Source: Candidatus Omnitrophota bacterium (GTDB lineage: Bacteria > Omnitrophota > Gorgyraeia > Aquiviventales > Aquiviventaceae). From it: a stretch of DNA of 64,000 nucleotides. The first letter of the stretch is position 1, and each line of letters starts with the position of its first letter. A program made the translations under genes and the position numbers. The notes under the pieces are model-generated. The model saw only the letters and a program-made list of their open reading frames with translations. It had not been told where the DNA came from and made no database searches. The stretch spans positions 15,434 to 79,433 of the forward strand of contig JACQHR010000041.1 in the NCBI GenBank assembly GCA_016198905.1. The letters are read 5' to 3'. Shown piece by piece: positions 24,268 to 63,605 of this stretch.

Positions 24268-26379
24268 CTAGCGCAACGTCACGCCGAATCGGGTCATCAG
24301 CGTTTGGCCGATGCGCTGATGCACGGCGTCGACCTCCGCTGCGGTCAAGGTCCTCGCTGGATCGCGATACTCGATGGAAAACGTCAGGCTCGTTTTGCCT
24401 GCGGGGATTTGTTTGCCCGCGTAGCGGTCGATAAGTTCGATGATAGTCGCAAGCGGCCGTCCCGTCTCGCGCATGACCTGATGAAGGGCCGCAAACGGGA
24501 TCGTGTGGTCGATGATAAGGGACAGATCCCGCTTCACCGGTGGAAATGTGGCCGGCGCGTGCGCGTGCGGGGTTGCGCGCGTCAAGGCAAGCAGCGCAGG
24601 AACGGAGAGCTCTGCAAACCAGACGTCCTCTTCGAGATCAAGGGGCCGTGTGATGTGGCGCGCCACTTGTGCGGCCACGCCGACTGGCCGACCATCGATG
24701 GCGATATCGGCGCTCTGCCCAGGCTCGGCCCAGGCCAGCGACGCTGGGCTCATCTGAAGGATGGCTCCGGTGGTGTGCTGGGCGATCGACGTTATGAGCC
24801 CTTTGAGCCGAAAGAAATCCGCAGGCGTCTTGGTCTGCCAGTCCCGCGCCCACAGTCCTGAGAGGATGACGCCCAGGTGCGCGCATTCCGCCCTGTCTTC
24901 TTGCCCGAGCACGGATTGCGTCACGTGGCCGATTTCAAACAGACGCACTCCCAAAGCCCCTTGCGTGAGGTTGCGCCGCACGACATCGAGCAAGCCCACG
25001 AGCAGCGTCGGGCGCAGGTACGCATGGTCTTGGCTCAATGGGTTGGCCAGGCGCGCCGCGCGCGTCGCGTCACAGCGGCAACGAGCCAGGTCGCTCTCTG
25101 AAATCAACGACCACGTCACCGCCTCGGTGAGCCCAAGACCAGCGCACCGTTCACGAAGGGCGTGTGTCTGTTCGTGGGCGTGGTCTGGCGCTGCCTGTGG
25201 CTGACGCAGCGTCGTCGTGGGCAGAAGAGCCGGGACATGCTCATAGCCTGTGACGCGCACGACCTCTTCGATCAGGTCGACATCCTGCGTGAGGTCGCGG
25301 CGAAACGAAGGGACGGCGACGCGCAAGGAAGCTCCGGAGGCATCCGATGCGACATGGCACGAGAGGCGTGCGAAGGTCGTCCGCAGCGTCGGCACGCTGA
25401 TCGGCGCGCCGAGCAGCTGTGTGACGCGCGCGACATCGAGCGCGATCGTCGTCCGTTTGAACGTCGTCGTCCCGACATCTTGCACCGCGGTTTCGGTGCC
25501 GCCGGCGAGCTCTTGCATCAAGCGGGCCGCGCGAATTGAGGCCGCTTCGACGCCCATCGGGTCGACCCCGCGCTCAAAGCGGTACGAAGATTCGCTCACC
25601 AGTCCGAGGCTGCGCGCCGTGCGCCGGATCATCCACGGATCAAAGCAAGCACTTTCGAGCAGGATGTCCGTGGTCTGCGCGGTCACTTCACTGCCCACCC
25701 CGCCCATGATACCGGCAACCGCAACAGGATGCCGCGCATCCGCAATCACGAGCACGTCCGCGGCGAGTTTGCGAGCGACCCCATCGAGCGTCGTGATGGG
25801 CTCTGCGACCTGTGCCCGTCTGACGATAATCGTCCGCTGAGCCAGCCGCTGAAGATCAAAAGCGTGAAGCGGTTGCCCGTATTCGAACAGCACGTAGTTG
25901 GTGATGTCCACGATGGTGTTGATCGGCCGTGCGCCGCACGCGAGGAGCCGTCGCTGCATCCACGCGGGTGATGGGCCGATGGCAACACCCTCGATGACGC
26001 GGCCGATGTACCGTGAACAGCCGTGGTGATCCTCAATTCGAATGATGGGGCGGGGGGCGTGCTCGCCCCGGCTCTTGTCGTCGGCGGGCCGGGGGGGCGT
26101 GGGGCGAGTTTTGCTTTTCTCGTGTCTTGTGTCTTGTGTCTTGTGTCCCAAAGGCGGTTTCAGCCTCTGACCGGTGAGTGCCGCGACTTCGCGCGCCACG
26201 CCGATGATCGAGAGCCAGTCGGCGCGGTTCGGCGTGATTTCGACGTCGAAGATCGGCCCGCCGTCGACCTGTTCGATGCCTGTGACTTCGAGCCCCGCCA
26301 TCGTCAGCCGATGCGCGAGCGCTTCCGGTTTCAGCCGAATCGGCACGTACTCTTTCAGCCACTCCAGCGGAATTTTCAT
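24268..26379 (-). CDS. pheT: phenylalanine--tRNA ligase beta subunit, lacking the OB-fold tRNA-binding (B2) domain
   Basis: MKIPLEWLKEYV start. EITPNRADWLS, B3/4, B5 and FDX-ACB-like C-terminus (SLTFSIEYR). 703 aa. Confidence 0.9.
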   Translation of the reverse strand: MKIPLEWLKEYVPIRLKPEALAHRLTMAGLEVTGIEQVDGGPIFDVEITPNRADWLSIIGVAREVAALTGQRLKPPLGHKTQDTRHEKSKTRPTPPRPADDKSRGEHAPRPIIRIEDHHGCSRYIGRVIEGVAIGPSPAWMQRRLLACGARPINTIVDITNYVLFEYGQPLHAFDLQRLAQRTIIVRRAQVAEPITTLDGVARKLAADVLVIADARHPVAVAGIMGGVGSEVTAQTTDILLESACFDPWMIRRTARSLGLVSESSYRFERGVDPMGVEAASIRAARLMQELAGGTETAVQDVGTTTFKRTTIALDVARVTQLLGAPISVPTLRTTFARLSCHVASDASGASLRVAVPSFRRDLTQDVDLIEEVVRVTGYEHVPALLPTTTLRQPQAAPDHAHEQTHALRERCAGLGLTEAVTWSLISESDLARCRCDATRAARLANPLSQDHAYLRPTLLVGLLDVVRRNLTQGALGVRLFEIGHVTQSVLGQEDRAECAHLGVILSGLWARDWQTKTPADFFRLKGLITSIAQHTTGAILQMSPASLAWAEPGQSADIAIDGRPVGVAAQVARHITRPLDLEEDVWFAELSVPALLALTRATPHAHAPATFPPVKRDLSLIIDHTIPFAALHQVMRETGRPLATIIELIDRYAGKQIPAGKTSLTFSIEYRDPARTLTAAEVDAVHQRIGQTLMTRFGVTLR
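26122..26148. repeat. tandem heptanucleotide array (gtgtctt x3 plus partial) inside pheT
   Basis: The sequence reads gtgtctt gtgtctt gtgtctt gtgtcc. It encodes part of the linker HKTQDTRHEK on the minus strand. Confidence 0.8.
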
Positions 26380-31544: not shown

Positions 31545-31618
31545 TGGGCGGTAGAGGATTCGAACCTCTGGCCTTCACTATGTCAAAGTGACGCTCTAAC
31601 CAACTGAGCTAACCGCCC
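31545..31618 (-). tRNA. tRNA-Val (anticodon GAC)
   Basis: The reverse complement folds as a cloverleaf: acceptor GGGCGGT/ACCGCCC, anticodon arm TCACT-TTGACAT-AGTGA, T arm AGAGG-TTCGAAT-CCTCT. Confidence 0.9.
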
Positions 31619-31656
31619 GTGCTGCGGTGTGCTTCGATACCCGCGAGAACAGAACA

Positions 31657-31742
31657 TGCCGGGGGTGGGACTCGAACCCACACGTCCCTTTCGGGACAAG
31701 AGATTTTAAGTCTCTCGCGGATGCCAGTTTCGCCACCCCGGC
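31657..31742 (-). tRNA. tRNA-Leu (anticodon TAA)
   Basis: Acceptor GCCGGGG/CCCCGGC, anticodon arm AGAGA-CTTAAAA-TCTCT, long variable arm GTCCC-GAAA-GGGAC, T loop TTCGAGT. Confidence 0.9.
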
Positions 31743-31772
31743 GCATCTGGCGTATGCCTCGATGAAGTGACG

Positions 31773-31844
31773 AGGCGCGGATCGGAATCGAACCGATGTA
31801 TAAGGGTTTTGCAGACCCTCGCCTTACCACTTGGCTACCGCGCC
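31773..31844 (-). tRNA. tRNA-Cys (anticodon GCA)
   Basis: Acceptor GGCGCGG/CCGCGCC, anticodon arm AGGGT-CTGCAAA-ACCCT, T arm ATCGG-TTCGATT-CCGAT, discriminator U. Confidence 0.9.
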
Positions 31845-35867: not shown

Positions 35868-36346
35868 CGCTGCGCCCCTGCGCTCGATGATCCCGCCGGC
35901 CGCAAGAGTTCACTCGGTTGAAACCACAGTTGAATCTCTCGCTGCGCCTCAATCGGGTCCGACGAGGCGTGCACGACGTTTTCCATCAGCCCCTCCGTTT
36001 TCATGCGCCCAAACGCTCCACGGATCGTTGTCGGTTCGGCCTGTTCCGGATGTGTCGCTCCGGTGACGCGGCGCAAGCGTTCAATCGCATCTGGCCCCCA
36101 CAGCACAAACGCGAGCACCGAGGAGATGCCGTGGCGCTTTCCCTCGAGATACTCCACCGTTTCATTAAAAAACGCTTTGCTGCGAATGTGCTTGTAGTGC
36201 TCTTCCGCAAGCGCCCGACTGACCGGCGTCACTTTCGCTCCAATGATCTCGAGGCCGAGCGGCTCAATTTTGGAAAACACCGCCCCCACGATGCCGCGCT
36301 GGATCGCGTCGGGCTTGATGATAAACAGGGTGGCCTGCTCGGCCAT
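35864..36346 (-). CDS. ndk: nucleoside-diphosphate kinase
   Basis: TLFIIKPDAIQRGIVGAVFSKIE ... NVVHASSDPIEAQREIQLWF. Confidence 0.9.
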   Translation of the reverse strand: MAEQATLFIIKPDAIQRGIVGAVFSKIEPLGLEIIGAKVTPVSRALAEEHYKHIRSKAFFNETVEYLEGKRHGISSVLAFVLWGPDAIERLRRVTGATHPEQAEPTTIRGAFGRMKTEGLMENVVHASSDPIEAQREIQLWFQPSELLRPAGSSSAGAQR

Positions 36347-37203
36347 TACGTCTGCACCCCGAGCGCGTGCAGAATGCGCGTCAGATCCTCCGAGGAGAAG
36401 TAGTCGATGGTGATGCGTCCGCCTTTTTTTCGCCCATGAATGTGGACGCGCGTGCCAAGCGTGCGCTGGAGCTCTTCCTCCAGTGTCCGCGCGTGGGGAT
36501 CGGCCTGGCGGACGCGTCGTCTAGCACCACCCGCGTCCGCGCGCGCGCCTGCCTCGGCCTGCCGGACGGAGAGTCCGCTGCGCAGCACGTGTCGATACAA
36601 CGCGAGTTGCTTCGTTGTATCCTCGACGCTGAGGAGGGCCTTCGCGTGCCCCAGCGTCACGCGTCCTTCGCTCAATCCTTGCCGGATCTCCTGGGGCAAG
36701 GCGAGGATCCGCAGGAGGTTCGAGACCGTGGCGCGATCCTTGCCGACGGCGCTCGCGACGTCTTCTTGGGTATATCCGAATTCGTGGAGCAGGCGTTCGT
36801 AGCCCTTGGCTTCTTCGAGGGGATTGAGATTTTCCCGCTGGATATTCTCAATGAGTGAGACCTCCAGCGTTTCTTTATCGGACAGCGTCCTGATAATCGC
36901 CGGGATCTCTGGAATGTTGAGCGCTTGAGTGGCGCGCAGCCGTCGTTCGCCTGCGACCACTTCGTAGGTCCCGTGCGCAAGCGGCCGGACGATAACGGGT
37001 TCGATCACTCCTGAGCGCTTGATCGACGCTTTCAAATCCTCGAGCCCTGCGTCAGAGATGGCCGTGCGCGGCTGAAATCGTCCTGCACGGATCTGCTCTG
37101 TTCGCAGCATGACAAAACTTGACGATCCGCTTGGCACAGTCGTTGAAACGTGAGTGTTGGTCGTAATGATATCGGCAAGTCCGCGTCCAAGCCGCTTCGT
37201 CAT
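36346..37203 (-). CDS. parB: chromosome partitioning protein ParB
   Basis: RGLADI..., GVIEPVIVRP, GERRLRA, and the HTH LIENIQRENLNPLEEA...TQEDVA. Confidence 0.9.
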   Translation of the reverse strand: MTKRLGRGLADIITTNTHVSTTVPSGSSSFVMLRTEQIRAGRFQPRTAISDAGLEDLKASIKRSGVIEPVIVRPLAHGTYEVVAGERRLRATQALNIPEIPAIIRTLSDKETLEVSLIENIQRENLNPLEEAKGYERLLHEFGYTQEDVASAVGKDRATVSNLLRILALPQEIRQGLSEGRVTLGHAKALLSVEDTTKQLALYRHVLRSGLSVRQAEAGARADAGGARRRVRQADPHARTLEEELQRTLGTRVHIHGRKKGGRITIDYFSSEDLTRILHALGVQT

Positions 37204-37979
37204 ACCACCACCTCGGATTCTTTTGATATAACCTCTTGTGTGAGAAGTTGATACGCCAACGCTCCTGTTGAGTGAGGGTCGTAGAGACAGATGGGTTTTC
37301 CAAAACTTGGAGACTCCGCCAACCGGATATTTCTCGGAATGGCGGTATCGAAGACAAGGTCCTTGAAGAATTGTTTGACCTCTTCGGCCACTTCTCTTGT
37401 GAGATTCGCGCGAAAATCCGTCATCGTTAACACAATCCCCCCCACGCGCAATGAGGGATTAAGATTCTGCTTAATGAGGTTCACCGTGCGTATGAGTGAA
37501 TTCAATCCCTCAAGCGCGAGATACTCGCACTGGACAGGAATAAGCGTGCTGTCGGCTGCAACGAGCGCGTTGACCGTCAGCATGCCGAGGGACGGAGGAC
37601 AATCGAAAATGATGAAATCATAGGAGGCTTTGATCGGCTCGCATAGTTTTTTTAGGACAGTTTCCCGCTCATCCGTCGTCGTCAAGTACGGCTCGGCTCC
37701 TGCAAGGTCGAGGCTTGAGGGGACGATTTCCAGGAGGTTGATCTGTGTACGCTGTGTCGCCTCTTGCACCGTGGCGCGGTTGACCAGGACATCGTAGACG
37801 TCTTTCTCCAGCTCGCTTCGTTTGACACCGCACGCGGTGGTCGCATTCCCTTGCGGGTCAAGATCTACGAGCAACGTCCGCTTGCCTGAGAGCGCAAGAT
37901 ATGACCCAACGTTGACGGCCGTCGTGGACTTTCCGACGCCGCCTTTTTGATTACAGACTGCAATAATTCGCCCCATCAC
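37200..37979 (-). CDS. parA: chromosome partitioning ATPase ParA/Soj
   Basis: IIAVCNQKGGVGKSTTAVN is a deviant Walker A. DLDPQGNAT follows. Confidence 0.9.
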   Translation of the reverse strand: MMGRIIAVCNQKGGVGKSTTAVNVGSYLALSGKRTLLVDLDPQGNATTACGVKRSELEKDVYDVLVNRATVQEATQRTQINLLEIVPSSLDLAGAEPYLTTTDERETVLKKLCEPIKASYDFIIFDCPPSLGMLTVNALVAADSTLIPVQCEYLALEGLNSLIRTVNLIKQNLNPSLRVGGIVLTMTDFRANLTREVAEEVKQFFKDLVFDTAIPRNIRLAESPSFGKPICLYDPHSTGALAYQLLTQEVISKESEVVV

Positions 37980-38056
37980 GGATATGCGTGCTCGTGTCCG
38001 CCATTGTACTCAACGCTTAGGATAAATCCAACTGAAAAGTGCGGCTGAGATTCACG

Positions 38057-38087
38057 ATTTCCACAGCCTATTCACAATTGTGGAAAT
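38057..38087. promoter_or_regulatory. DnaA-box cluster in the parA-yidC spacer
   Basis: atTTCCACA (38057-38065), cTATTCACA (38068-38076) and TGTGGAAAt (38079-38087) are close matches to TTATCCACA/TGTGGATAA, arranged as an inverted pair. Confidence 0.5.
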
Positions 38088-39638
38088 CTAGGATGCTAGG
38101 CGATACCAGACAAGCGACATGATGCTATTCGTTAACCAATACAAGACAAGTCCTGACGGAAATTGATAAAACATGACGCCAAAGAGCACAGGCATGATCG
38201 GTCCGCTCATCATCTGTGCGGTAGGATTCCCGCTAGAACCTCCCATGTTTTTCTGAGACATCTTCGTTTGAAAATACATCGTCCCTGCCATAACGATGGG
38301 TAGCAGATTAACTTCATTACTAAGAAATGGAATCGTCACCGGTAGCTGCGCGATGCGATCCGGCAATGACAGGTCTTTTATCCACAGAAAGCCTGCTCCT
38401 CGCAGGCCGATAAAATGCGAAATAGCTTGAAAGAGCGCGATGAAAACCGGCATCTGGAGCAGCATGGGGAGGCAGCCACTAAGGGGACTGACCCGGTGCT
38501 GTTTGTACAGGGCAAATACCTCCACATTAGCCTTCTTCGGATCGTCCTTATGTTTCGCCATAATCCGGTCAAGCTCTGGTTTTAACTCTTGCATCTTCTT
38601 CATTGAGCGGAAGCTCAGCAGCGTAAACGGCGCCATCAGCGACGTCACCAGCACAGAAAGGAGAATGAGTGCTACTCCGTAATTCCTTGTGACGCCTGCG
38701 GTCCAGTCAAGAATCTTCACTAGGACAAGCCCGATCTGTCCTAACACGCCGATCTTAAAGGCTTTTTCGAATCCGGCCTTTTGGAGTTGGAAAAAATCTC
38801 TTGGCCCAAGATAGATGCTTGCGTGAAACTCCGTTGTAGGAGAGGCTCCTCCGATGCTTGCTATTGCCTCTGCGGCAATCGTCCCGTTCGAGGTTGGAAG
38901 AATTTTCACGTTGGTCCCCTGGGGCAATTTCACCGACTGACAAAAGTACCGCTCAGCCAGTGATGCCATCGATGTTCCACGTGGAACATCTTTTTCTGCC
39001 CTCATCGGCGCCATCATTCTCCGGTACGTGTTCCCCCGCTCCCCTCCAACGAATACGGCTTCGAGTGGATTGTTTCGATTGCTTAGGGTATCGCCCTTCA
39101 CCCACGTCGTCGTCAGTGCTAGATCGCCCACATCCACAGATCCGCCCTCATGATAGACTGTTATATCAATGATCGGGTTGGTCTCCGATACCGAATAAAC
39201 TAGCCTGTACTGTCCTTGTCTGGCGTCAGATAAGCTGAATTCTGCTTTCCTTACCGAGGTCGAAATTATTTTCCAGTTGCTCGTAGCACTTCCTACCTGC
39301 ACGCTGATGAGCGGGTATGTGCCAGAGAATTTCAGCGAGGCGCCAAGATCATTGCCTGCGTGGTATTTCTTAAGCGTCGCGTTTCGAACCGCTGCACTTG
39401 TCACTCCAATTTCTAGTTTGAGCTGCTGCGTTTCCATAATCACAACCTCTTCTTCAGAAATTGGATGCATTGATGTTGTGGTTGCAATGATGGCTGCCGG
39501 TGTTTCAGTTACGGTTGGTGCGGTGTTATTGGACGCGGCTTTCGAGTCGGCAGGTTTACCAATTTTCAGCACGTACTGCGAATACAGGCTCAATACAATA
39601 GCAGACAACAGTGCAGCAATAATAGTACGTTTTTCCAT
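38088..39638 (-). CDS. yidC: membrane protein insertase YidC
   Basis: N-terminal TM, a large periplasmic domain, and the C-terminal core LSGCLPMLLQMPVFIALF...LVLYWLTNSI. Confidence 0.9.
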   Translation of the reverse strand: MEKRTIIAALLSAIVLSLYSQYVLKIGKPADSKAASNNTAPTVTETPAAIIATTTSMHPISEEEVVIMETQQLKLEIGVTSAAVRNATLKKYHAGNDLGASLKFSGTYPLISVQVGSATSNWKIISTSVRKAEFSLSDARQGQYRLVYSVSETNPIIDITVYHEGGSVDVGDLALTTTWVKGDTLSNRNNPLEAVFVGGERGNTYRRMMAPMRAEKDVPRGTSMASLAERYFCQSVKLPQGTNVKILPTSNGTIAAEAIASIGGASPTTEFHASIYLGPRDFFQLQKAGFEKAFKIGVLGQIGLVLVKILDWTAGVTRNYGVALILLSVLVTSLMAPFTLLSFRSMKKMQELKPELDRIMAKHKDDPKKANVEVFALYKQHRVSPLSGCLPMLLQMPVFIALFQAISHFIGLRGAGFLWIKDLSLPDRIAQLPVTIPFLSNEVNLLPIVMAGTMYFQTKMSQKNMGGSSGNPTAQMMSGPIMPVLFGVMFYQFPSGLVLYWLTNSIMSLVWYRLAS

Positions 39639-39652
39639 CTAATAACTTTTCT

Positions 39653-39886
39653 TTACGTTAGCGGATCGTATCCGAATGGCCCAAACGGCTGACATTTTAT
39701 TGCCCGACGAGTCGTTTTGAAAAATCCCCGAAGGATTCCGTAGCGAGAAAAAGCCTCTTGCGCGTACAACGAACACGTCGGCGTAAATCTACATGAATGC
39801 AACATCCAGTGAGACAAGGTGTTTCGATAAATACGAATAAGGAAGATGACGAGTATTGTCATCAAATGGCGGCGATTCTTTTGCAT
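39653..39886 (-). CDS. yidD: membrane protein insertion efficiency factor YidD
   Basis: CRFTPTCSLYAQEAFSRYGILRG motif. An alternative start at 39862 (MTILV) overlaps the rnpA stop by 1 nt. Confidence 0.85.
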   Translation of the reverse strand: MQKNRRHLMTILVIFLIRIYRNTLSHWMLHSCRFTPTCSLYAQEAFSRYGILRGFFKTTRRAIKCQPFGPFGYDPLT

Positions 39887-40215
39887 AATAAACGAAACTC
39901 CTGATCAAGATCGGTGGTTTTAACGGGAAGGGTACGCGGGTGAATCACCACGATCAGGTCAAGCCCTGTCCGCAGGAAACTTGGGCCTGTCCTGATAACG
40001 GCACGCAGCTGACGTTTGAGTCTGTTCCGTTGGGGCGCACTCTTGAGGCCTCGCTTCACTCGAAGACCAACGCGCGTGAACCCTTCTTGATTCGTTGCGC
40101 CGCCGACGGAAAGCACGGGGCCGTGCGCCCACCGTCCACGACGAGACACGTGACGAAACACGCGCGTGAGCTTCAAGCGCTTGACAGATGCCGGTCGGCC
40201 GAATCCCTTGGCCAC
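39862..40215 (-). CDS. rnpA: ribonuclease P protein component
   Basis: Basic 117-aa protein with RNRLKRQLRAV (RNR motif), in the rpmH-rnpA-yidD-yidC order. Confidence 0.8.
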   Translation of the reverse strand: MAKGFGRPASVKRLKLTRVFRHVSRRGRWAHGPVLSVGGATNQEGFTRVGLRVKRGLKSAPQRNRLKRQLRAVIRTGPSFLRTGLDLIVVIHPRTLPVKTTDLDQEFRLLCKRIAAI

Positions 40216-40221
40216 TGGGCT

Positions 40222-40362
40222 TTAGGCTGGGATGAGTTGCCAGCGCCCTTTTTGTCGACGACGCCGAAGCGTCCCGCGCCCTCCGCGCGAACTCATGCGA
40301 CGGAGAAATCCGTGCGTACGTACGCGTTTTCGATTCGACCGATTCCTCAGGTGTTTTTTCAT
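40222..40362 (-). CDS. rpmH: 50S ribosomal protein L34
   Basis: My translation, below the ORF-track cutoff: MKKHLRNRSNRKRVRTHGFLRRMSSRGGRGTLRRRRQKGRWQLIPA (46 aa). Confidence 0.9.
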   Translation of the reverse strand: MKKHLRNRSNRKRVRTHGFLRRMSSRGGRGTLRRRRQKGRWQLIPA

Positions 40363-40408
40363 CGTCGCCATTATACGGGCGCGCTTCAAGGGAATCAAGG
40401 AGAAATCG

Positions 40409-40437
40409 CTTGAGCGCTTCGTTGAGAGTTGTTATAA
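40409..40437 (+). promoter_or_regulatory. candidate sigma70 promoter of dnaA
   Basis: TTGAGC (40409-40414), a 17-nt spacer, then TATAAT (40432-40437), 55 nt upstream of the dnaA GTG. Confidence 0.5.
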
Positions 40438-40479
40438 TGCCGTCTCTGCGTGAGATCTCTCAGGCCCGTAACCTAGAGC

Positions 40480-40508
40480 CTGTGCAAAACGTGTGGAAAC
40501 TGTGCAAA
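40480..40508 (+). promoter_or_regulatory. three tandem DnaA-box-like 9-mers overlapping the dnaA start codon
   Basis: tgtgcaaaa (40480), tgtggaaac (40491) and tgtgcaaaa (40500). The 11-nt direct repeat ctgtgcaaaac occurs twice. Confidence 0.5.
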
Positions 40509-41881
40509 ACTCTCCATTTGATTGGGTCGCAGCCAGGGAAATCCTTAAAGCTAGGCTTGGATCCGAGGTTGTCAGCCGGTGGCTCGACCCGCTTTCGCTT
40601 GCGGCTGTCACGGACCAATTGATCGTCCTCGAGGCTCCCAATGCGTTTTTCAGAGATTGGGTAGCGGCGCATTACCTTGAGGCGATCCGATCTTTGCTTG
40701 GTGACCGCGCGCTGCACCTCGTCACGGCAACCGCCAATATCCACGATCCTGTGGGTCAGCGAGTCATCGCGCCGCTCAAGCCTGCAATTCTAGAGAGTCG
40801 CCCCCACACAAGCGGCCCGCCTCCCGCCGGCGCACACGAATGGAATCATCCCCTCAATTTGAAATTTACGTTTGACCGATTTGTCGTGGGCCCCAGCAAT
40901 CGCTTCGCGCACGCAGCCTCATTGGCCGTTGCGGAGTCTCCCGCCAAAGCTTACAATCCGCTCTTTATTTACGGCGGGGTCGGATTAGGCAAGACGCATC
41001 TCATGCAGGCCATTGGGCACGCGATTCTCCAGCGCTGGCCCGCACAACGGATCGTGTACACCTCGAGCGAACGATTCACCAACGAACTGATTGCGGCCAT
41101 TCAAACGAAGACGACCACGAAGTTCCGCGACCGGTATCGCTCGGTTGACGTCCTGCTGGTTGACGACATCCACTTCATCGCGCAGAAGGAGGCCACGCAG
41201 GAGGAGTTCTTCCACACCTTTAACGCGCTCTACGACGCGCACAAACAAATCGTGATTTCAAGCGATCGCTCCCCGAAAGACATCGCCGGGTTGGAAGAGC
41301 GCCTTGTATCGCGGTTTGAGTGGGGACTGGTCACCGACATTCAGTCGCCGGATCTGGAAACGCGGATTGCGATTTTGCGCAAGAAAGCGGAGGAGGCGCA
41401 ACTGACCGTGCCTGACGAAGTCACGGACTTTATCGCGCAGCAAGTCACCGCCAATATTCGCGAACTCGAAGGGGCGCTTATCCGTGTGCTGGCCTATTGT
41501 AACCTGTTCAATAAAGCTCCTACCGCAGATGTGGCCCGTGAGGTTTTGAAGGACCTTGTGCGTGAGGTGCGTTCTCGCGTCACGGTGGTTGGAATCCAGC
41601 GGCGGATTGCCGAGTACTTTCAGTTGGAGGTGGTGGAGCTGCGTGGAGCGAGACGGCAGCGCTCCGTTTTATATCCGCGCCAAGTGGCGATGTTCTTGTG
41701 TCGTCGTTTAACAGAGGCGTCGCTCCCTGAGATTGGACAAGCGTTTGGAGGAAGAGACCATACCACCGTGATGCACGCAGTAGAAAAAATAGAACGAGAA
41801 ATTGCACAAGATGCGCACAAGAAGCAGCTTGTGGAGCAGCTCCACCAATTGGTTGTGACCGCATCGCACACGGCACAGTAG
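40493..41881 (+). CDS. dnaA: chromosomal replication initiator protein DnaA
   Basis: [13 protein letters not shown], Walker [24 protein letters not shown], and the C-terminal [14 protein letters not shown]-binding motif. Confidence 0.95.
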
Positions 41882-41885
41882 TGTG

Positions 41886-41984
41886 TTATCCACATTTCCA
41901 GAACACCGGGTACTACCACGTTCTTTCTTTAAGAAGATAAAGATAGTACTAACCGTATCGGGTTTTTCATTAAGTTGTGGAAAA
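41886..41984. other. candidate oriC core: DnaA boxes flanking an AT-rich tract in the dnaA-dnaN spacer
   Basis: A perfect TTATCCACA at 41886-41894 and TGTGGAAAA at 41976-41984. Between them lies the AT-rich tract ttctttctttaagaagataaagatagtactaa. Confidence 0.55.
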
Positions 41985-42034
41985 CACAACCCCACAACCA
42001 CATCTCAATCTCAGGCCACACAAAGGAACACACA

Positions 42035-43138
42035 ATGCGCATTAGTATTCCAAAACCACAACTCCTCAAAAGCCTCCAAATGGTCGAGCACGCGGTAAAC
42101 GACCGAAGCGCGCTACCCATTCTTGCCAACGTGCTCCTTGAAACGAACGATAAAGAGCTTATCTTGACAGCGACGGACCTTGATGTGGGGATTCAATGCC
42201 GCTTCCCACTAACATTGCCTACAGAGACAGGCGCTGTGGCTCTTCCCGCAAGAAAACTCGCAACAATCATTCGGGAGTTACCGGAAGAGCTTGTGGTGTT
42301 GGAGGCCAAAAAAAACCACACCGCAACAGTCCAGTGCGGGACAAGCAGCTTTCGGATTCCAGGACTTCCCGCGGAAGACTTCCCAACACTTCCCGTAAGA
42401 CCAGAAGAAGGGAAAAGCATCATCGCGCAAGCCGCACTGAAAGCGCTTATTACACAAACCGCACACGCAATGTCGTCCGAGGAGACGCGGTTCATCCTCA
42501 ACGGCGCGTTGCTCACCATACAGAAAAATGATCTGGTAGTGGTTGCCACGGACGGGCGCCGGCTTGCGGTGGCGCGCGCGCCGTTGACCGTCAAAGGAGA
42601 GCTGCCGCTTCACGTCGTGGTGCCTGCAAAAACGATCCGCGAGCTCGGCCGTTTGCTGCAAGATGATGCCCCGGACGATGTGTCGCTCGCGCTGCTCAAA
42701 GATCATCAACTCGCATTCAGTTTCGGCGCGGCGACTGTCATTACAAGATTAATCGAAGGGCAGTTCCCGCAGTACGAGAAGGTGATCCCGCCCGTTGCCA
42801 AACACAAAGTCACCGCTGACCGGCAAGCCCTCATCGACGCCATCCGACGGGCCAGCCTCATGACGACCGCGACTTCACAAGCGGTCGTCTTTGAGCTCGA
42901 GGAGAAGCGCGTGATCGTCTCGAAAGAGTCTGCAGAGCTTGGAAGCTCGCGAGAAGAACTTCCTGTCCACTACACCGGCGAGCGCACCACGATGGCCTTC
43001 AACCCGGAATTTTGGCTCGATGTCTTAAAAGTGCTCGAGACGACCGATGTGGCGATCGAAATTAGCGGCCCGGAACGCCCAGCGGTGATCCGGCAACCCG
43101 AATTCACCTATGTGGTCCTCCCAATGAAAGTGGCGTAA
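42035..43138 (+). CDS. dnaN: DNA polymerase III beta sliding clamp
   Basis: MRISIPKPQLLKSLQMVEHAV...ILANVLLE...LTATDLD. Three-domain length of 367 aa. Confidence 0.9.
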   Translation: MRISIPKPQLLKSLQMVEHAVNDRSALPILANVLLETNDKELILTATDLDVGIQCRFPLTLPTETGAVALPARKLATIIRELPEELVVLEAKKNHTATVQCGTSSFRIPGLPAEDFPTLPVRPEEGKSIIAQAALKALITQTAHAMSSEETRFILNGALLTIQKNDLVVVATDGRRLAVARAPLTVKGELPLHVVVPAKTIRELGRLLQDDAPDDVSLALLKDHQLAFSFGAATVITRLIEGQFPQYEKVIPPVAKHKVTADRQALIDAIRRASLMTTATSQAVVFELEEKRVIVSKESAELGSSREELPVHYTGERTTMAFNPEFWLDVLKVLETTDVAIEISGPERPAVIRQPEFTYVVLPMKVA

Positions 43139-43153
43139 CGGAACCGACGTCGC

Positions 43154-43456
43154 ATGGCCGCGGATTCCCCACAGCCTGTCAGCGCGATTCTCTCCACGGT
43201 CTTGAGGCAGATGGAGCAACAACACAGTCCGCTGGCGGCGATCCAAGGCCAGTGGCGCGCGCTCGTTGGGAAGCGGCTCGCGGCGCACACCACGCCCGTC
43301 AGCTTGCGTCGGGGACGACTCGTGGTGTATGTGGAGCGGCCGGGAGACGGGTTCATCCTCAACTATCAACGGGGCGTCCTGCTAGAGCAGGTGCGGGCGC
43401 TCACGCAAGGGAAGGTGGAAGAGCTCGTCATCCGCCCCGGGCCTCCAACGGCGTGA
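43154..43456 (+). CDS. DUF721/DciA-like protein
   Basis: ILSTVLRQM...IQGQWRALVGKRLAAHTTPVSLRRGRLVVYVERP...LNYQRGVLLEQV is the DUF721 pattern, in the typical position after dnaN. Confidence 0.75.
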   Translation: MAADSPQPVSAILSTVLRQMEQQHSPLAAIQGQWRALVGKRLAAHTTPVSLRRGRLVVYVERPGDGFILNYQRGVLLEQVRALTQGKVEELVIRPGPPTA

Positions 43457-43463
43457 TGGGATA

Positions 43464-46248
<2,785 letters not shown>

Positions 46249-46251
46249 TCC

Positions 46252-50280
<4,029 letters not shown>

Positions 50281-50313: not shown

Positions 50314-50385
50314 GTCCCCATCGTCTAATGGTTAGGACAACAGCCTTTCGAGCTGACAATGGGGGTTCGATTCCCCCTGGGGACA
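50314..50385 (+). tRNA. tRNA-Glu (anticodon TTC)
   Basis: Acceptor GTCCCCA/TGGGGAC, anticodon loop CTTTCGA, T arm GGGGG-TTCGATT-CCCCC. Confidence 0.9.
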
Positions 50386-56621: not shown

Positions 56622-57876
56622 GGGCGGACGCGTCATCGATCCGTCGCAGACGCGCGATGGCGCGGCGGATGTGTTGATCGAGGAGGGCCACATCGCGGCG
56701 GTCGACACCGCCATTCCAGTAAACGGCGCTCGTGTGCTTGACGTCAGCGGCAAGATTGTCGCACCCGGACTCGTCGATCTGCACACGCATTTGCGGCAAC
56801 CCGGGCGCGAGGACAAAGAGACCATCGAAACCGGCTGCCGTGCGGCGCGGCGCGGCGGGTTTACGACGATCTGCGCGATGCCCAATACGACGCCCGCGAT
56901 GGACCAGCGGGGGATTGTCGACTTCGTGCATCAGGAGGCCGAACGGCTGGGGCTCGTGAGCGTGCGGACGATCGGCGCGATCACGAAAGGCCGCCAAGGG
57001 CGCGAGCTGACGGACTTCAGCGAGCTCTTTGATGCCGGATGCATCGCCCTCTCCGATGACGGGAATCCGGTCGCCGACGGCTTCTTGATGCGCCGGGCGC
57101 TCGAGTACGCCAAAGTGTTTGACCGTCCGCTCATTCAGCACGCCGAAGACCCGGCCCTCGTCGCCGGCGGCGTGATGCACGAAGGGCTCGTCTCGACGAC
57201 GTTAGGCTTGCGAGGCATTCCGAGCGAAGCAGAATCCATCATGGTCGCGCGCGACATCGCGCTTGCAGAGCTGACGGGCGGGTGGGTCCATGTCGCGCAT
57301 CTGTCCAGCGCGCAGTCCGTCGAGCTCATCCGCCAGGCGAAGCGGCGCGGCGTGCACGTCACGTGCGAAGTGACCCCGCACCACCTGGCCCTCACCCACG
57401 AAGCCGTCGGGGAGTTCGACACGCGAGCCAAAGTGAATCCCCCGTTGCGGACCGAAAAAGATCGCGCGAGTCTTGTTGAGGGGCTGCGCGATGGGACGAT
57501 TGATTGCATTGCCACCGATCACGCGCCGCATACCGACTGGGAAAAAGAAGCCGACTTCGACGCGGCTCCCTTCGGCATCAGCGGCCTGGAAACGGCGTTG
57601 GCGGTCTGCGTGGAGGCGCTCATCACGACCAAGGTTCTGACGTGGAGCCAGCTCATCGAGAAGCTCGCCACGGCGCCGGCGCGCATCGCGGACCTCCGTG
57701 CCGGGACGCTCGCTGTTGGAGCCAGCGCCGATCTGGTTGTCATCGATCCATCGGCGCACTGGACCGTCGAGCCGCAGCGGTTTGTCTCGAAAGGCCGCCA
57801 CTCGCCCTTTGCAGGGCGCGTGGTCACAGGAGCGGTGGAGCGCGTGTGCTACCGCGGAGTCGAGTCGGAACCATGA
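56602..57876 (+). CDS. pyrC: dihydroorotase
   Basis: [28 protein letters not shown], and TDHAPH motifs. Confidence 0.9.
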
Positions 57877-59048
57877 GGACAGCAACACGAGTGGCGTGGC
57901 TGGTCTTGGAGGACGGCACGGCGTTTCGAGGCCGAGCCGTCGGCGCTGATGGCGAAGTCTTCGGCGAAGCGGTGTTCAATACCGCCATGACCGGCTACCA
58001 AGAAATCCTCACCGACCCTTCCTATAAAGGGCAGATCGTGTGCATGACGTATCCGCACATCGGCAACTACGGCGTCAACGACGAAGACGTCGAGTCGCGA
58101 CGGCCGTGGGTCGAAGGGTTCATTCTCCGTGAACTCTCTCCTGTGGCGAGCAATTTCCGTTCGCAGGAGTCCCTGGACGCGTACTTCACGCGCCATCACG
58201 TGGTGGCCATCGACGAGGTCGACACGCGAGCGCTCACGCTCATCTTGCGCCGGCGCGGCACGATGAAAGCGGGACTCTCCACGACGGAACCGGACCCCCA
58301 GCGGCTGCTGCAGCGCGTGCGCGACTCGGCCGACATCGAAGGCGCCGATCTCGTCAAGACGGTCACGTGCGAGGCGCCGTATGACTGGCCCCCAAAACAG
58401 GGGCAGGGGGCGGGAGACGCGGGGCGGGAAAAATCTTCGGCGACTGTTTTTGCCTACCCCACGCCCCACGCCCCACGCCCCATCGATATTGTGGTGATGG
58501 ATTTCGGCGTGAAGTTCAACATCCTCCGGCAGCTCGCAGCCCGTGGCTGTCGTGTCACGGTTGTTCCGGCCACGACGGCGGCGGCGGACATCCTCGCGCA
58601 GAAGCCGGACGGCGTCGTGCTCTCCAACGGGCCGGGCGATCCCGCGGCGGTGACGTATGCCATCGCGACCATTCAAAACCTCATGGGGCACGTGCCGATG
58701 CTGGGGATCTGCCTGGGCCACCAGCTCCTCGGCCTGGCGTACGGCGGAGAAACCTTCAAGCTCAAGTTCGGCCATCACGGCGGCAACCACCCGGTGCAAG
58801 ATCTCGAGACACAGAAAGTCGAGATCACCACGCAGAACCACAACTTTGCCGTGCGGATGGAGTCCATCCCCGGCCGGCACGTTGAGGTGACGCACAAGAA
58901 TCTCAATGACGGCACCGTTGAAGGCATGCGCCATCAGGAGTTGCCGATCGTGAGTCTGCAGTACCACCCCGAAGCCGCCCCCGGCCCGCACGACGCGCGG
59001 TATTTCTTCCAACGCTTCCTCGATCTCGTGGAGGGCGTGCATGCCTAA
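57873..59048 (+). CDS. carA: carbamoyl-phosphate synthase small (glutaminase) subunit
   Basis: LVLEDGTAFRGRAVGA...GEAVFNTAMTGYQEILTDPSY. GATase with GICLGHQLL and HHGGNHPV. ATGA overlap with pyrC. Confidence 0.9.
   Translation: MRTATRVAWLVLEDGTAFRGRAVGADGEVFGEAVFNTAMTGYQEILTDPSYKGQIVCMTYPHIGNYGVNDEDVESRRPWVEGFILRELSPVASNFRSQESLDAYFTRHHVVAIDEVDTRALTLILRRRGTMKAGLSTTEPDPQRLLQRVRDSADIEGADLVKTVTCEAPYDWPPKQGQGAGDAGREKSSATVFAYPTPHAPRPIDIVVMDFGVKFNILRQLAARGCRVTVVPATTAAADILAQKPDGVVLSNGPGDPAAVTYAIATIQNLMGHVPMLGICLGHQLLGLAYGGETFKLKFGHHGGNHPVQDLETQKVEITTQNHNFAVRMESIPGRHVEVTHKNLNDGTVEGMRHQELPIVSLQYHPEAAPGPHDARYFFQRFLDLVEGVHA
58457..58482. repeat. tandem heptanucleotide array (ccccacg x3 plus partial) inside the carA linker
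   Basis: ccccacg ccccacg ccccacg cccca. It is preceded at 58400-58428 by a G-rich partly complementary arm with 7-nt periodicity. Confidence 0.8.
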
Positions 59049-60282
59049 ATTCATTGCGGATTTCCACATCCACTCCCGCTACAGCCGGGCGTGCTCGAAA
59101 TCTCTGACCATCCAAGAACTCGCCAAGTGGGCGAAGATCAAAGGCATCGGCGTCCTCGGCACCGGCGATTTCACACACCCGTTGTGGCTCCAGGACATCA
59201 AAGACGCGGCGCGCGACACGGGCCACGGGCTCTTCGAGTGCCAGGGCACGCAGTTCATCTTAACCGCGGAAGTCAACACGCTCTTCTACAAGCACGGCAA
59301 AGCGCATCAGATTCACCACGTGCTGCTCGCCCCAAGCCTCGAGGCGGTGGAGCGCATCAATCGCGAGCTCGAGGCGTTTGGCGATCTCAGTCTCGATGGC
59401 CGGCCGATGCTGCGGATGGAGGCGTGGCGGCTCGTCGAAATCGTCCTCGGTGTTGAGCCGCGTTGCCTCGTGGTCCCGGCGCACGTGTGGACGCCGTGGT
59501 TTGCGCTCTTTGGCTCGACCTCCGGGTTCGATGCGATCGAGGAGTGCTTCGAGCAGCAGACCGGCAACATCTTCGCGCTCGAAACCGGGCTCTCGTCGGA
59601 TCCCGCAATGAACTGGCGCTTGAGCGCGCTCGACCGCTACACGCTGCTCTCCAATTCCGATTCCCACTCCGCGCGGCGCATCGGGCGCGAGGCCAATCTC
59701 TTTGAGTGCGAGCAGGACTACGAGACGATCGTGGGCGCGATCAAGACGAAGGATCGGGCCAAGCTGCGCGGCACGCTCGAGTTCTTTCCGGAAGAAGGCA
59801 AATACCATTACGACGGGCATCGCGCGTGCGGCGTGCGCTGGTCGCCTGAAGACACGAAGCGCCACGGGTTGCGCTGCACCGGCTGCGGCAAGAAGGTGAC
59901 CGTCGGCGTCATGCATCGCGTGGACGCGTTGGCCGACCGGGCCGAAGGATTCGCGCCGCCCAACGCGATCCCCTTCACCCGCGTCGTACCGCTCGACGAG
60001 ATCATCGCGGAAGCGCTGTCCGTCGGGGTGGGCACGCAGGCGGTGGAACGCGACTATCAACAGCTCATCTATAAATGCGGCACCGAACTGGATGTCCTGC
60101 TGACGGTTCCTGAGGAGACGTTGCGAAAAGCTGCGACCGAACGCGTCGTTGAGGGTATTCTGCGCATGCGCCAGGGACGCCTCGTGGTCGAACCCGGCTA
60201 CGATGGGGTCTATGGCACGGTGCGCCTGTTCGACGAGGAACAGCCGGCCCAACCCGAGGAGCAGCAGTTGACGTTGTTTTAA
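59041..60282 (+). CDS. PHP-domain endonuclease Q-like protein
   Basis: [17 protein letters not shown] motif, [24 protein letters not shown], the zinc ribbon [16 protein letters not shown], and the C-terminal PGYDGVYG. The pattern matches Pyrococcus EndoQ as I recall it. Confidence 0.75.
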
Positions 60283-60287
60283 AGACG

Positions 60288-63200
60288 ATGCCGAAGCGAA
60301 CCGACATCAAGAAGATTCTCATCATCGGCTCCGGGCCGATCGTCATCTCCCAAGCCTGCGAATTCGATTATTCGGGCACCCAGGCGTGCAAAGCGCTGCG
60401 CGAGGAGGGCGTGAGCGTCGTGCTCGTCAATTCGAACCCCGCGACGATTATGACGGATCCCGAAACCGCCGATCGCACGTACATCGAGCCGATCACCGCG
60501 GAGATCGTCGAGAAAATCATCGACGCGGAGCATCCGGATGCGCTGTTGCCCACGCTCGGCGGCCAAACCGCGCTCAACGTGACGGTGCAGCTCGCGGAAC
60601 GCGGCGTGCTCGAGCGCTACAAGGTCGAGCTCATCGGCGCGAACATCCAGGCGATCAAGCGGGCGGAAGACCGCGCGCAATTCAAGGCGACCATGGATAC
60701 GATCGGGCTCGAAGTCCCGCGCGCCGGCTACGCCCACGCGCTGGAAGACGCCCGCGCCATCGCGGACACCATCGGTTTTCCCTGCGTGATCCGTCCGAGC
60801 TTCACGCTCGGCGGGACAGGAGGCGGGGTGGCCTATAACCCCGAAGAGTTCGACCGGATCGTGAAGCTCGGGCTGGAACTCTCCATGATCACCGAAGTCT
60901 CCATCGAGGAATCGGTGATCGGCTGGAAGGAGTTTGAGCTCGAGGTGATGCGCGATCGCGCGGATAACGTCGTGGTCGTCTGCTCCATTGAAAATTTCGA
61001 TCCGATGGGTGTGCATACGGGCGACTCCATCACGGTGGCCCCTGCGCAGACGCTGACGGACCGCGAGTACCAGGAGATGCGCGACGCGGCGATCAAGATC
61101 ATCCGTGCGATCGGGGTGGAAACCGGCGGCTCGAACATCCAATTCGCGGTGCATCCGGATTCCGGGCGGCTGCTGGTCATTGAGATGAACCCGCGCGTCT
61201 CCCGTTCCTCGGCGCTGGCGTCGAAGGCGACGGGGTTTCCGATCGCCAAAATCGCCGCGAAACTCGCCATCGGCTATACCCTCCACGAGCTGAGCAACGA
61301 CATCACGAAGCAAACGCCGGCCTGTTTCGAGCCGGCGATTGATTACGTGGTCGTCAAAATCCCGCGCTTTGCCTTCGAAAAGTTTCCCGGCGCCGATCCG
61401 ACGCTGACGATTCAAATGAAGTCCGTCGGAGAAACCATGGCGATCGGGCGGACCTTCACCGAAGCGCTGCAGAAGGGCCTGCGGGGATTGGAGATCAAGA
61501 AGGACGGCTGGGAAGCGGCGAGCGCCCTGCCCGTCGACGTCTTGCGGCAGAAGCTGGCCGTACCCACCGCCGAGCGGATGTTCTATCTGAAAGAAGCGTT
61601 CACCGCCGGGCTCTCCATCGACGAGCTCTTCCAGCTCACCAAAATCGACCGGTGGTTCCTGCGCCAACTCTACACGCTGACCGTGGAAGAATCGACGGTG
61701 CAAGCCGCCGCGGAGCAGATGCGCGCCGCGGCCGATGCGCCGATGGGCAGTCCGGTGCAGGTCAGCGCGGTGGAGGTTCTCCGCCGGGCCAAACGGTACG
61801 GGTTCAGCGACCGGCAGCTGGGAAAACTTTGGAGTCTTGACGAGGCGACGATTCGCGACTGGCGCGCGCGATGGCAGCTGCAGCCGACCTATTACCTCGT
61901 GGATACGTGCGCGGCCGAGTTCGAAGCGAGGACGCCGTATTATTACTCCACCTACGAACAACCAGTGCTGCGATGCGATGATGGAAGCTGGAAACTAGAA
62001 GCTGGAACAAGCACTCCAGCCTCCAGCCTCCAGCCTCCAGCCTCCCAGAATCGAAAGGTAATGATCCTCGGGGGCGGCCCCAACCGGATCGGTCAGGGGA
62101 TCGAGTTTGATTACTGCTGCGTGCACGCGGCGTTTGCGCTGCGCGAGCTGGGCATCGAAGTCATCATGGTCAACTCGAACCCGGAAACCGTCTCGACGGA
62201 CTACGACACATCGGATAAGCTCTACTTCGAACCGGTCACGCTCGAGGACGTGCTGAACATCGTTCAGCGCGAACAACCCGAAGGCGTCATCGTGCAATTC
62301 GGCGGGCAAACCCCCTTGAATCTGACGATGGGGTTGGCCAAGGCCGGCGTCCCGATCCTGGGCACGAGTGCCACCACCATCGACGTGGCCGAGGATCGGG
62401 AGAAATTCAAGCGCCTGCTGGATGAGCTGGGGTTGCGGCAGCCGCCGAGCGGGACGGCGATGACCATGGGGGAAGCCCAGCTGACCGCGCGCACCATCGG
62501 CTACCCGTGCCTCGTGCGCCCCTCGTATGTGTTGGGCGGACGCGCGATGGAAATCGTCTACGACGATGATCAGCTCACGCGCTTTGCGCAATACGCGCTT
62601 GACGTCTCGCCAGGCTTTCCTGTCCTCATCGACAAGTTTTTGGAGGACGCGATCGAGGTGGACGTCGATGTCGTCGGCGACGGCGAGACCTTCGTGATCG
62701 GCGGGGTCCTGGAGCACATCGAGGAAGCCGGCATCCACTCCGGCGATAGCGCGATGGTCCTGCCGCCGCACACGCTCACGGATGAGATCCTCGCGGACAT
62801 CCGCACGGCCGCGCACAAGCTCGCGCAGGCGCTGAAGATCGTCGGGCTCATGAACGTGCAACTGGCGATCAAGGACGACGTCGTCCATATTCTTGAGGTC
62901 AACCCGCGCGCCTCGCGCACGGTGCCGTTCATCTCCAAGGCCATCGGCACCCCGCTGGCAAAGATCGCCACGCGCGCGATGGTCGGCGTCTCCCTGCGCC
63001 AACAAGGCTACACGGAAGAGATCATCCCGCCGTTTCTGGCGGTGAAGGAATCCGTCTTTCCGTTCTCGCGCTTCGCGGGCGTGGACATCATCTTGGGCCC
63101 GGAGATGCGCTCCACCGGCGAAGTCATGGGCCTCGACGAGGATTTCGGGCGCGCCTTCATCAAATCGCAGATCGCGGCAGGACAGCTCTTGCCGCGCGCC

Positions 63201-63605
63201 GGCACCGTGTTCATCAGCGTCAAGAATCGCGATAAGCGGGCGATCATTCTCGTGGCCCAGCGCCTGGAAGAGATGGGGTTTCAGCTCGTCGCGACCCACG
63301 GCACCGTGAACGCGCTGCAGCGCTACGGGCTGCACGCCACCCTCGTGAACAAGATTCACGAAGGCCGGCCAAACGTCCTGGATCTCTTGAAAAGCGGGCA
63401 GATCCAACTGGTCATCAATACGCCCTCCGGCCGGTTGCCGCGCGCGGATGAAATTCACATTCGGTCGGCGGCAGCGACCCTCGGGATTCCGTGCGTCACC
63501 ACGGTCGCCGGCGCGCAAGCCTCCGTCAGCGGCATCGGGGCCTTGTTGAAGCATCAGCTGACGGTCAAGCCGATCCAAGCCTATCACCAACTGCTGCATC
63601 GATGA
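60288..63605 (+). CDS. carB: carbamoyl-phosphate synthase large subunit
   Basis: [25 protein letters not shown], and a duplicate ATP-grasp half starting [27 protein letters not shown]-like C-terminus. Confidence 0.95.
62014..62048. repeat. tandem heptanucleotide array (ctccagc x4 plus variant) inside carB
   Basis: ctccagc x4 then ctcccag. It is preceded by two copies of gaagctggaa (61984-61993 and 61998-62007), whose gctgga is complementary to tccagc. Confidence 0.8.

Follow-up and report, generated by a model that had tools for sequence, protein, structure and literature searches.

Introduction

Mazel and colleagues are said to have described, in 1990, the short tandemly repeated repetitive (STRR) heptanucleotides of cyanobacteria, and in RNase P RNA such repeats reportedly lengthen a helix. 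STRR have been located inside the RNase P RNA gene (Vioque, 1997). In heptameric long simple sequence repeats, the preferred array size is about four units (Rehm et al., 2015; PMC4692102), and the tandem repeats of Borgs, which evolve fast, give rise to novel disordered segments of proteins (Schoelmerich et al., 2023; PMC9879509). Here, we describe a heptamer element that lies in frame inside carB, the gene of the carbamoyl-phosphate synthase large subunit, on a 64-kb stretch of a Candidatus Omnitrophota genome (GenBank assembly GCA_016198905.1, contig JACQHR010000041.1, positions 15,434 to 79,433 of the forward strand; hereafter, the window). The element is a single hairpin made from an inverted pair of heptamer arrays, and it probably represents a class of short repetitive DNA found throughout the lineage, in which inverted arrays of ~4 units make up ~65-90 nt.

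We compared the window with the loci of relatives, designated by L numbers and taken with flanks of up to 10 kb. Repeat arrays were located with Tandem Repeats Finder and with a scan for exact runs of at least three copies, period by period. Ten CarB ortholog sequences were examined at the DNA level and eight loci were folded with shuffle controls. L083 and L084 represent one protein from two repositories; they are identical over 19 kb and uninformative on variation.

Results

The CarB cassette is a hairpin of two inverted heptamer arrays

The host gene, carB (60288-63605, plus strand), is an intact open reading frame (ORF) of 1105 aa. Its product matches the E. coli CarB structure 1bxr (E = 0) as well as NCBIfam PRK05294 (1656 bits), and has 100% identity to MBI3997361.1, a protein of a Candidatus Omnitrophota metagenome-assembled genome. 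A preliminary description, made from the sequence alone, had reported within this gene an in-frame 65-nt cassette with two copies of GAAGCTGGAA followed by exact CTCCAGC repeats, and this account holds. The 22-residue peptide of the cassette directly precedes the conserved motif that opens the second half of the enzyme. The right (3') arm (62014-62045, plus strand) is CTCCAGC repeated 4.6 times (Tandem Repeats Finder score 64, 100% matches); it codes for a 10-residue peptide and is directly followed by 'cag' (62046-62048). The left (5') arm (61970-62010, plus strand) is a degenerate array of complementary heptamers that reads, in the register given by the ortholog alignment, GCGATGC, GATGATG, GAAGCTG, GAAACTA, GAAGCTG, GAACAAG, and it pairs with the right arm in the minimum free energy (MFE) fold. 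Both GAAGCTGGAA copies (61984-61993 and 61998-62007) fall inside this arm. They are the decayed complementary arm of the CTCCAGC array and not, as had been proposed, a second type of repeat.

In the RNA fold, the hairpin spans 61982-62048 (plus strand), including both arms and an apical loop at ~62008-62015. It forms one stem with ~1 mismatch per 7 nt and an MFE of -31.5 kcal/mol (z = -4.8), and none of 200 shuffled sequences was as stable. The ability to form a hairpin, which had been suggested from the complementarity of the repeats, is thus stronger than first stated. When the heptamer regions were searched against Rfam, no family was matched, the sole hits being 6S RNA and tRNAs. Altogether, this shows that the cassette is one hairpin, with an exact right arm and a degenerate left arm.

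At the protein level, the linker between the two halves of CarB measures 33 aa in the window, while E. coli and the majority of other phyla have 12-13 aa. A residue-by-residue alignment places ~20 extra residues relative to E. coli CarB at the cassette, in agreement with the preliminary description. In an AlphaFold2 model of the window protein (mean predicted local distance difference test score, pLDDT, 82.5; predicted template modeling score 0.86), residues 561-586 (nt 61968-62045) have a pLDDT of 25-32 and no secondary structure, and are flanked by the conserved strands YYSTY (551-555) and VMILG (590-594). The encoded loop is therefore predicted to be disordered and to sit between the two halves of an essential enzyme.

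Heptamer arrays turn over at the CarB linker across Omnitrophota

The linker could be delimited, from YYSTYE to the conserved second-half motif starting with K or R, in 111 Omnitrophota orthologs. Its length ranges from 12 to 49 aa: 103 of the 111 exceed 12 aa and the other eight have 12 aa, as in E. coli. In CarB loci from unrelated lineages, the linker was 12 aa in 17 of the 19 non-Omnitrophota loci that could be parsed, so the length seen in the window is not common to them. Judging by the related sequences, the cassette is neither private to this genome nor recent, L081 and L082 sharing the same element.

Linker peptides are hypervariable across the clade. In 26 of the 111 linkers, runs of at least three residues are identical at an offset of exactly 7 aa; other offsets gave 0-7 such linkers. 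This 7-aa periodicity is the mark that a 7-nt DNA repeat leaves when all three frames are translated. At the DNA level, full inverted arrays of ~4 units were present in 6 of the 10 CarB orthologs (window, L081, L082, L083, L085 and L086). Six of the eight shuffle-controlled loci fold into one long hairpin (z = -2.5 to -4.8), and L210 and L211 form similar stems.

The units themselves differ from one lineage to another. The window carries GCTGGAA on the left and CTCCAGC on the right, and L081 and L082 belong to this same unit family; the right arm has 28-30 of 30 nt in common with theirs. L083 and L210 have GCTCAAG and CTTCAGC, L085 has GGCTCAG and C[ACG]CAGCC, and L086 has GGGGCGG and CCCCACG. 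In L211, the units are mixed (GGCTNNN) and the opposite arm mirrors them unit by unit. L209 has kept a degenerate right arm and only one left-arm unit, and L088, with a short linker, has no significant hairpin (z = -0.9). The CarB linker is best explained as an old permissive hot spot, a surface loop between the oligomerization domain and the second ATP-grasp half.

Length changes preserve the frame and the bases are conserved

Over 3.3 kb, just one indel separates the carB genes of L085 and L209 (94% aa and 87% nt identity). This indel is 21 nt long and corresponds to exactly three GGCTCAG units. Relative to L081 and L082, the window has gained 7 nt, or one unit, on the 5' side of the left arm and lost 1 nt in the loop, and as a result ~36 homologous nt of the left arm are read in another codon phase. 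The frameshift hazard raised in the preliminary description is real insofar as the unit is not a multiple of 3, but the comparative data show frame-preserving outcomes only.

Despite the shifted frame, the hairpin core of the window matches that of L081 at 56 of 61 positions and that of L082 at 53 of 61 (87-92%), whereas four-fold degenerate sites of the same genes are identical at 47% and 55%, respectively. Between L083 and L210, the hairpin is conserved at ~64 of 71 positions, including 31 of 31 in the right arm, versus 60% at four-fold sites. Positions within a repeat are not independent, and binomial P values for this conservation overstate its significance. Core identity far above that of four-fold sites across a change of frame shows that the conserved object is the nucleotide sequence and not the peptide.

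Selection on the host gene is visible as well. Where perfect pairing would put TGA into an arm (CTTGAGC, CTGAGCC), it is precisely at that base that the coding arm departs from the complement; intergenic hairpins retain the TGA. As a cause of the one mismatch per unit, stop-codon avoidance explains the L083 and L085 arms, but we rejected it, as it does not account for the window CarB and CarA arms, the perfect complements of which are stop-free.

Heptamer arrays recur in other genes and between genes

The preliminary description had pointed to similar arrays in carA and pheT, and both were recovered (CCCCACG, 3.7 copies; CACAAGA, 4.3 copies). The carA element (58400-58485, plus strand; coding sequence 57873-59048, plus strand) lies between the CPSase_sm_chain and GATase domains, a Pfam domain gap that covers residues 136-207. 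It consists of the left arm GGGGCAGGGGGCGGGAGACGCGGGGCGGG, a loop of 26 nt, and a right arm of CCCCACG units (58457-58482) coding for PTPHAPRP, and it folds at -46.9 kcal/mol (z = -2.2). The CarA linker measures 27-35 aa in the window, L081 and L083, versus 8-10 aa in L085, L086 and L088.

The third repeat-laden linker, in pheT (26040-26160, minus strand; coding sequence 24268-26379, minus strand), encodes GHKTQDTRHEKSKTRPTPPRPADDKSRGEHAPRP. On the coding strand, the CACAAGA array (26118-26147) is followed by degenerate CCCCACG-like and palindromic G/C-rich sequence. This linker connects the N-terminal B1 region to the B3_4 domain, which starts at residue 121. Domain searches detected no tRNA_bind (B2) domain in the window PheT (703 aa); the low-complexity linker (residues ~70-115) occupies the place of B2, and the PheT of L087 retains tRNA_bind.

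Among exact arrays of at least three copies, the window contains three of period 7 and none of period 6 or of periods 8-12, and composition-preserving shuffles contain close to none. Over four Omnitrophota loci, we counted 13 period-7 arrays in 126 kb, or 103/Mb. As a control, we reused the contigs from a CarB scan that returned, among the matches listed, only other phyla at no more than 63% identity: these 80 CarB loci, 1.5 Mb in total, hold 4 such arrays (2.7/Mb). Period 7 was the only over-represented period, the others showing no enrichment. Arrays nearly always comprise 3.3-4.6 units, and GGCT-core units account for 29-39% of them versus 8% expected. All three window arrays are in coding sequence, as are ~11 of the 16 arrays of the Omnitrophota loci, where they fill loops of CarA, CarB, PheT, PyrD and PyrK. 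Other arrays lie between genes, for example in the nuoK-L, nuoL-M and nuoM-N gaps, and at the 3' end of pyrD.

Some units are dispersed within a genome or shared between loci. The GCTCAAG/CTTCAGC family occupies three places within 23 kb of L083, namely CarB, PyrD and the pyrD 3' end. The CarA element of the window and the CarB element of L086 have a right arm in common (27 of 27 nt) and share a degenerate, idiosyncratic left arm, GGCGGGAG[AC]CG[CG]GGGGCGGG. The units of the three window sites are mutually unrelated, and sharing is restricted to unit families. Comparing filled with empty CarA and PyrD sites for target-site duplications or element termini yielded none that were convincing, the flanks being too diverged. 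By eye, GCAAG or ACAAGC was seen in 7 of ~10 apical loops, an observation on which we base no claim.

PyrD has a second insertion hot spot, in the loop directly after SCPN (gene coordinates 13719-14846 in L081, 13714-14694 in L082 and 13764-14783 in L083). This loop is ~11-14 aa long in L085, L088 and L209; L082 has a further 18 aa, L083 a further 30 aa and L081 a further 65 aa. The last of these inserts resembles nested hairpins together with a direct repeat of ~45 nt.

CTCCAGC arrays extend beyond Omnitrophota

A metagenome scan for three CTCCAGC units returned at least 120 stretches. Among the matches listed, many arrays lie inside long ORFs, and translations read by eye resemble PurL, a phosphotransferase system enzyme I-like protein, an aminotransferase and a GHMP-type kinase. 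A clear G-rich complementary arm accompanies about ten of the listed matches, which form very stable hairpins. The contigs with listed matches hold 44 further arrays of other heptamers (103/Mb).

One such contig, L153 (Ga0209172_10002422; 72% GC), carries a near-perfect GCTGGAG/CTCCAGC hairpin, with the array at 8817-8837 on the minus strand. The best named relatives of its DinG-like gene are Chloroflexota/Dehalococcoidia, on which basis we judged L153 to be Chloroflexota, so that the class extends beyond a single phylum. Just upstream of the DinG-like gene, we also noted the heptamer-derived peptide HPSPFTLHPSPFT. Altogether, members of the class occur in protein loops and between genes, both in Omnitrophota and in at least one Chloroflexota contig.

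In L114 (~2000-2300), an ORF that looks aminotransferase-like by eye has, around a CTCCAGC array, an insert of ~12 periods of 7 aa (NQLPATS, NQLPASS and variants), which would be a far larger expansion of the heptamer kind.

Other features of the window

The region 36346-50280 looks like a chromosomal origin region, with parB, parA, yidC (38088-39638, minus strand), dnaA (40493), dnaN (41975), gyrB (43774) and gyrA. A stretch ahead of dnaA is low in GC (48.6% over 38-40 kb versus ~62% elsewhere). GyrA (1342 aa; 46252-50280, plus strand) contains an intein, with Pfam Intein_splicing at residues 150-630, that interrupts the DNA_topoisoIV domain. In L082 (1-2005), a GlmS-like gene upstream of the pyr cluster also has an intein, with a LAGLIDADG homing-endonuclease domain in precomputed Pfam hits.

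Between carA and carB lies a gene of the TIGR00375/MJ0043_C family (59041-60282, plus strand) that overlaps the end of carA by 8 nt. The order carA-TIGR00375-carB is kept in the high-GC clade (L081-L086 and L088); in L087, the TIGR00375 gene is upstream of carA. A cluster of three tRNAs is found at 31545-31844 (minus strand), and a single tRNA (50314-50385, plus strand) just downstream of gyrA. Directly 3' of a 6S RNA gene (Rfam RF00013, 78.9 bits; 22585-22770, minus strand), a palindromic stretch of period 7/14, CTTAGTACTGAGTGCTTAGTGCTCTGTGCTAAG (22551-22580), may be a terminator or a heptamer-type hairpin.

Discussion

The CarB cassette is, in our view, probably a selfish or self-maintaining hairpin heptamer repeat that a permissive loop can tolerate. 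The sequences we compared directly show how the element is built, that it recurs both inside genes and in the gaps between them, that it turns over among orthologs, that length changes preserve the frame and that bases are conserved across frames, and the encoded loop is predicted to be disordered. That the element is selfish or neutral rather than of use to the host, and that it has been transposed or copied between loci, we infer from these patterns. The element would be kept at the nucleic-acid level and not for its peptide, being simply translated as ~21 extra disordered residues. Units would be gained and lost most simply by replication slippage, while the complementarity of the arms could plausibly be kept by intra-strand template switching or by conversion using copies elsewhere in the genome. 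The host gene would impose a filter through purifying selection, the survivors being stop-free and frame-restoring; their length would then vary by three units at a time, or by one unit together with a nearby 1-nt indel.

Several points weigh against a selfish or self-maintaining repeat. At the loci examined, we saw no target-site duplication, no terminal inverted repeats independent of the arrays and no associated enzyme, and the origin of the element and its mechanism of spread are inferred only. The hairpin is not universal, as in L087, from a lineage of 47% GC, a single AAACCCG array stands without a complementary arm. Finally, conservation well above that of synonymous sites could equally reflect a use of the structure by the host.

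A further-reaching version, which we hold as a tentative possibility and do not expect to be correct, is that the hairpins belong to a previously undescribed, self-propagating heptamer element present across several phyla, often with a GGCT core, subject to base selection of its own and served by a dedicated generating or copying activity. A candidate activity would extend both 3' ends of a DNA break by ~4 G-rich 7-nt units, after which the ends would be joined; unit addition and joining would give the observed [unit]n-loop-[complement]n geometry. Another candidate would be a hairpin-specific transposase. If true, essential enzymes of uncultivated bacteria would acquire new disordered loops again and again through such a self-propagating element.

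The main rival of a selfish repeat is a functional nucleic-acid structure used by the host. We consider it unlikely, but base-level conservation keeps it alive. The hairpin could act as an mRNA stem that slows ribosomes at domain boundaries for co-translational folding, as a signal for RNA stability or processing in long operon transcripts, or as a DNA site for a protein reading GGCT/AGCC every 7 nt. Such a use would fit the conservation of bases far above synonymous sites across a shifted frame, as well as arms that stay complementary while the units differ between orthologs, down to the unit-by-unit mirroring of L211. It would also fit the position of the elements at domain boundaries in CarA, CarB and PheT, the intergenic copies within operons, which recall the repetitive extragenic palindromic (REP) elements of E. 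coli, and the excess of GGCT-core units over expectation. However, similar elements are found at numerous sites unrelated to one another, such as gene 3' ends and the PyrD loop after SCPN, and some orthologs do without one, as shown by the 12-aa linkers and by L088, or have lost three units of one arm, as L209. The L087 lineage has arrays without a hairpin, and unrelated families swap in at the same CarB site (CCCCACG in L086, CTCCAGC in the window). Moreover, self-maintaining mobile repeats, such as REP doublets forming hairpins (REPINs), are also conserved without a host function.

Selection could instead act on the protein, favoring a flexible Pro/Ala/Ser-rich spacer between the CarB halves with the heptamers as incidental. 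The peptide has a typical linker composition and is predicted to be disordered, and most of the clade has retained a long linker. We nonetheless find this explanation very unlikely, as the 7-nt period is no multiple of a codon and all three frames are read, homologous bases remain 87-92% identical between the window and L081/L082 in differing frames, and identical arrays occur between genes. The linker peptides also vary greatly across the clade, and the eight orthologs with 12 aa manage without an extension.

It is still more improbable that the array is a contingency locus in which 7-nt slippage switches CarB on and off by frameshift, as in phase variation. The unit length is indivisible by 3, the array is inside a coding sequence and unit numbers vary among relatives, but the carriers are core housekeeping genes (carA, carB, pheT and pyrD), and the arrays are short (~4 units) and located mid-gene. 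All ten CarB ortholog genes read as DNA are in frame, every length change observed preserves the frame (21 nt, or +7 with -1), and among the 120 orthologs listed, the shorter ones are partial sequences (e.g., P0061, P0065 and P0068) with no sign of a frameshift. Short repeats can in principle be mis-assembled in a metagenome-assembled genome, but an assembly or sequencing artifact is almost certainly not the explanation, since the array, at 32 nt, is below read and typical k-mer length, the ORF is intact, the same architecture is found at the CarB site in independent NCBI, ENA and JGI assemblies, and L083 and L084, from two repositories, are identical.

We also considered a G-quadruplex, the explanation given for GGGNATC repeats (PMC4692102), and rejected it for the CarB copy, in which CTCCAGC/GCTGGAA has no G-runs; it may apply to the CCCCACG/GGGGCGG family.

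If the class is real, a repeat process at the DNA level, and not selection on proteins, creates and remodels disordered loops in CarA, CarB, PheT, PyrD and PurL, in phyla known almost solely from metagenomes. The same bases, read in differing frames in close relatives and still conserved, provide a natural experiment that separates nucleic-acid from peptide constraint. Heptamer arrays can pass for low-complexity features of proteins, account for the hypervariability of linker length seen in alignments and might be used as strain markers. The period of 7, the four-unit arms and their complementarity form a puzzle that has been shared with STRR since 1990, and a second and third phylum with such arrays would bring it within reach of comparative genomics.

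Comparison with known systems

The preliminary description had likened the arrays to STRR and to small dispersed repeats, and the resemblance holds, although the CarB copy is no member of that group: the host phylum and the units differ, and the copy is inside a gene. As with STRR, the units are tandem heptamers, many arrays are dispersed, above chance, over the window and related loci, several unit sequences coexist in a genome, and ~4 units are preferred; STRR1 (CCCCAGT) resembles the Omnitrophota unit CCCCACG. STRR are also tolerated inside a functional gene, that of RNase P RNA (Vioque, 1997), like the Omnitrophota arrays in genes. However, STRR belong to heterocystous cyanobacteria, with the units CCCCAGT, TTGGTCA and CAACAGT, and are predominantly non-coding. 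The arrays described here belong to Omnitrophota and one Chloroflexota contig, with CTCCAGC, CCCCACG and CACAAGA, and lie mostly in frame in the coding sequence of essential genes. Unlike STRR, they come as inverted pairs that form long hairpins.

In-gene repeats of Borgs are said to have unit lengths divisible by three and not to be paired into hairpins. The Omnitrophota arrays are like them in being fast-evolving nucleotide tandem repeats within ORFs that create intrinsically disordered segments, but they have a 7-nt unit that is read in all three frames, and they are short and paired. Contingency loci have in common with the CarB array a unit indivisible by 3 inside a coding sequence, but no out-of-frame variants were found among the ten CarB ortholog genes read as DNA.

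Like REPs and REPINs (Bertels and Rainey, 2011; PMC3116915), the elements have two inverted arms, form a hairpin, exist in many copies, some of them intergenic in operons, and are conserved without an evident host function. REPINs, however, are extragenic doublets without heptamer arrays, whereas the CarB copy and many others are intragenic. REPINs also depend on a REP-associated tyrosine transposase (RAYT) gene of the Y1 type, and none turned up in the 64 kb, over which no systematic RAYT search was made.

Rickettsia palindromic elements (RPEs) are reportedly 100-150 bp long, follow a consensus conserved within the family and do not consist of short units in tandem. The elements described here are shorter (65-90 nt), consist of heptamer arrays of many unit families and show rapid unit turnover at a fixed hot spot. 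The copies share unit families at most and not a consensus of ~100-150 bp, and no target-site duplication was visible where filled and empty CarA and PyrD sites were compared. The CarB copy is nevertheless an in-frame palindrome at a permissive site, with a significant fold (z = -4.8), an intact ORF and a pLDDT below 50. [quoted passage not shown] They are translated as an extra surface peptide that leaves the protein intact, with family members also between genes.

Our search, within a limited coverage of the literature, turned up neither heptamer arrays reported for Omnitrophota nor hairpins of inverted heptamer arrays reported within coding sequences. In form, these elements are closest to STRR and heptameric long simple sequence repeats, and in behavior they are closest to RPEs and intragenic MITEs.

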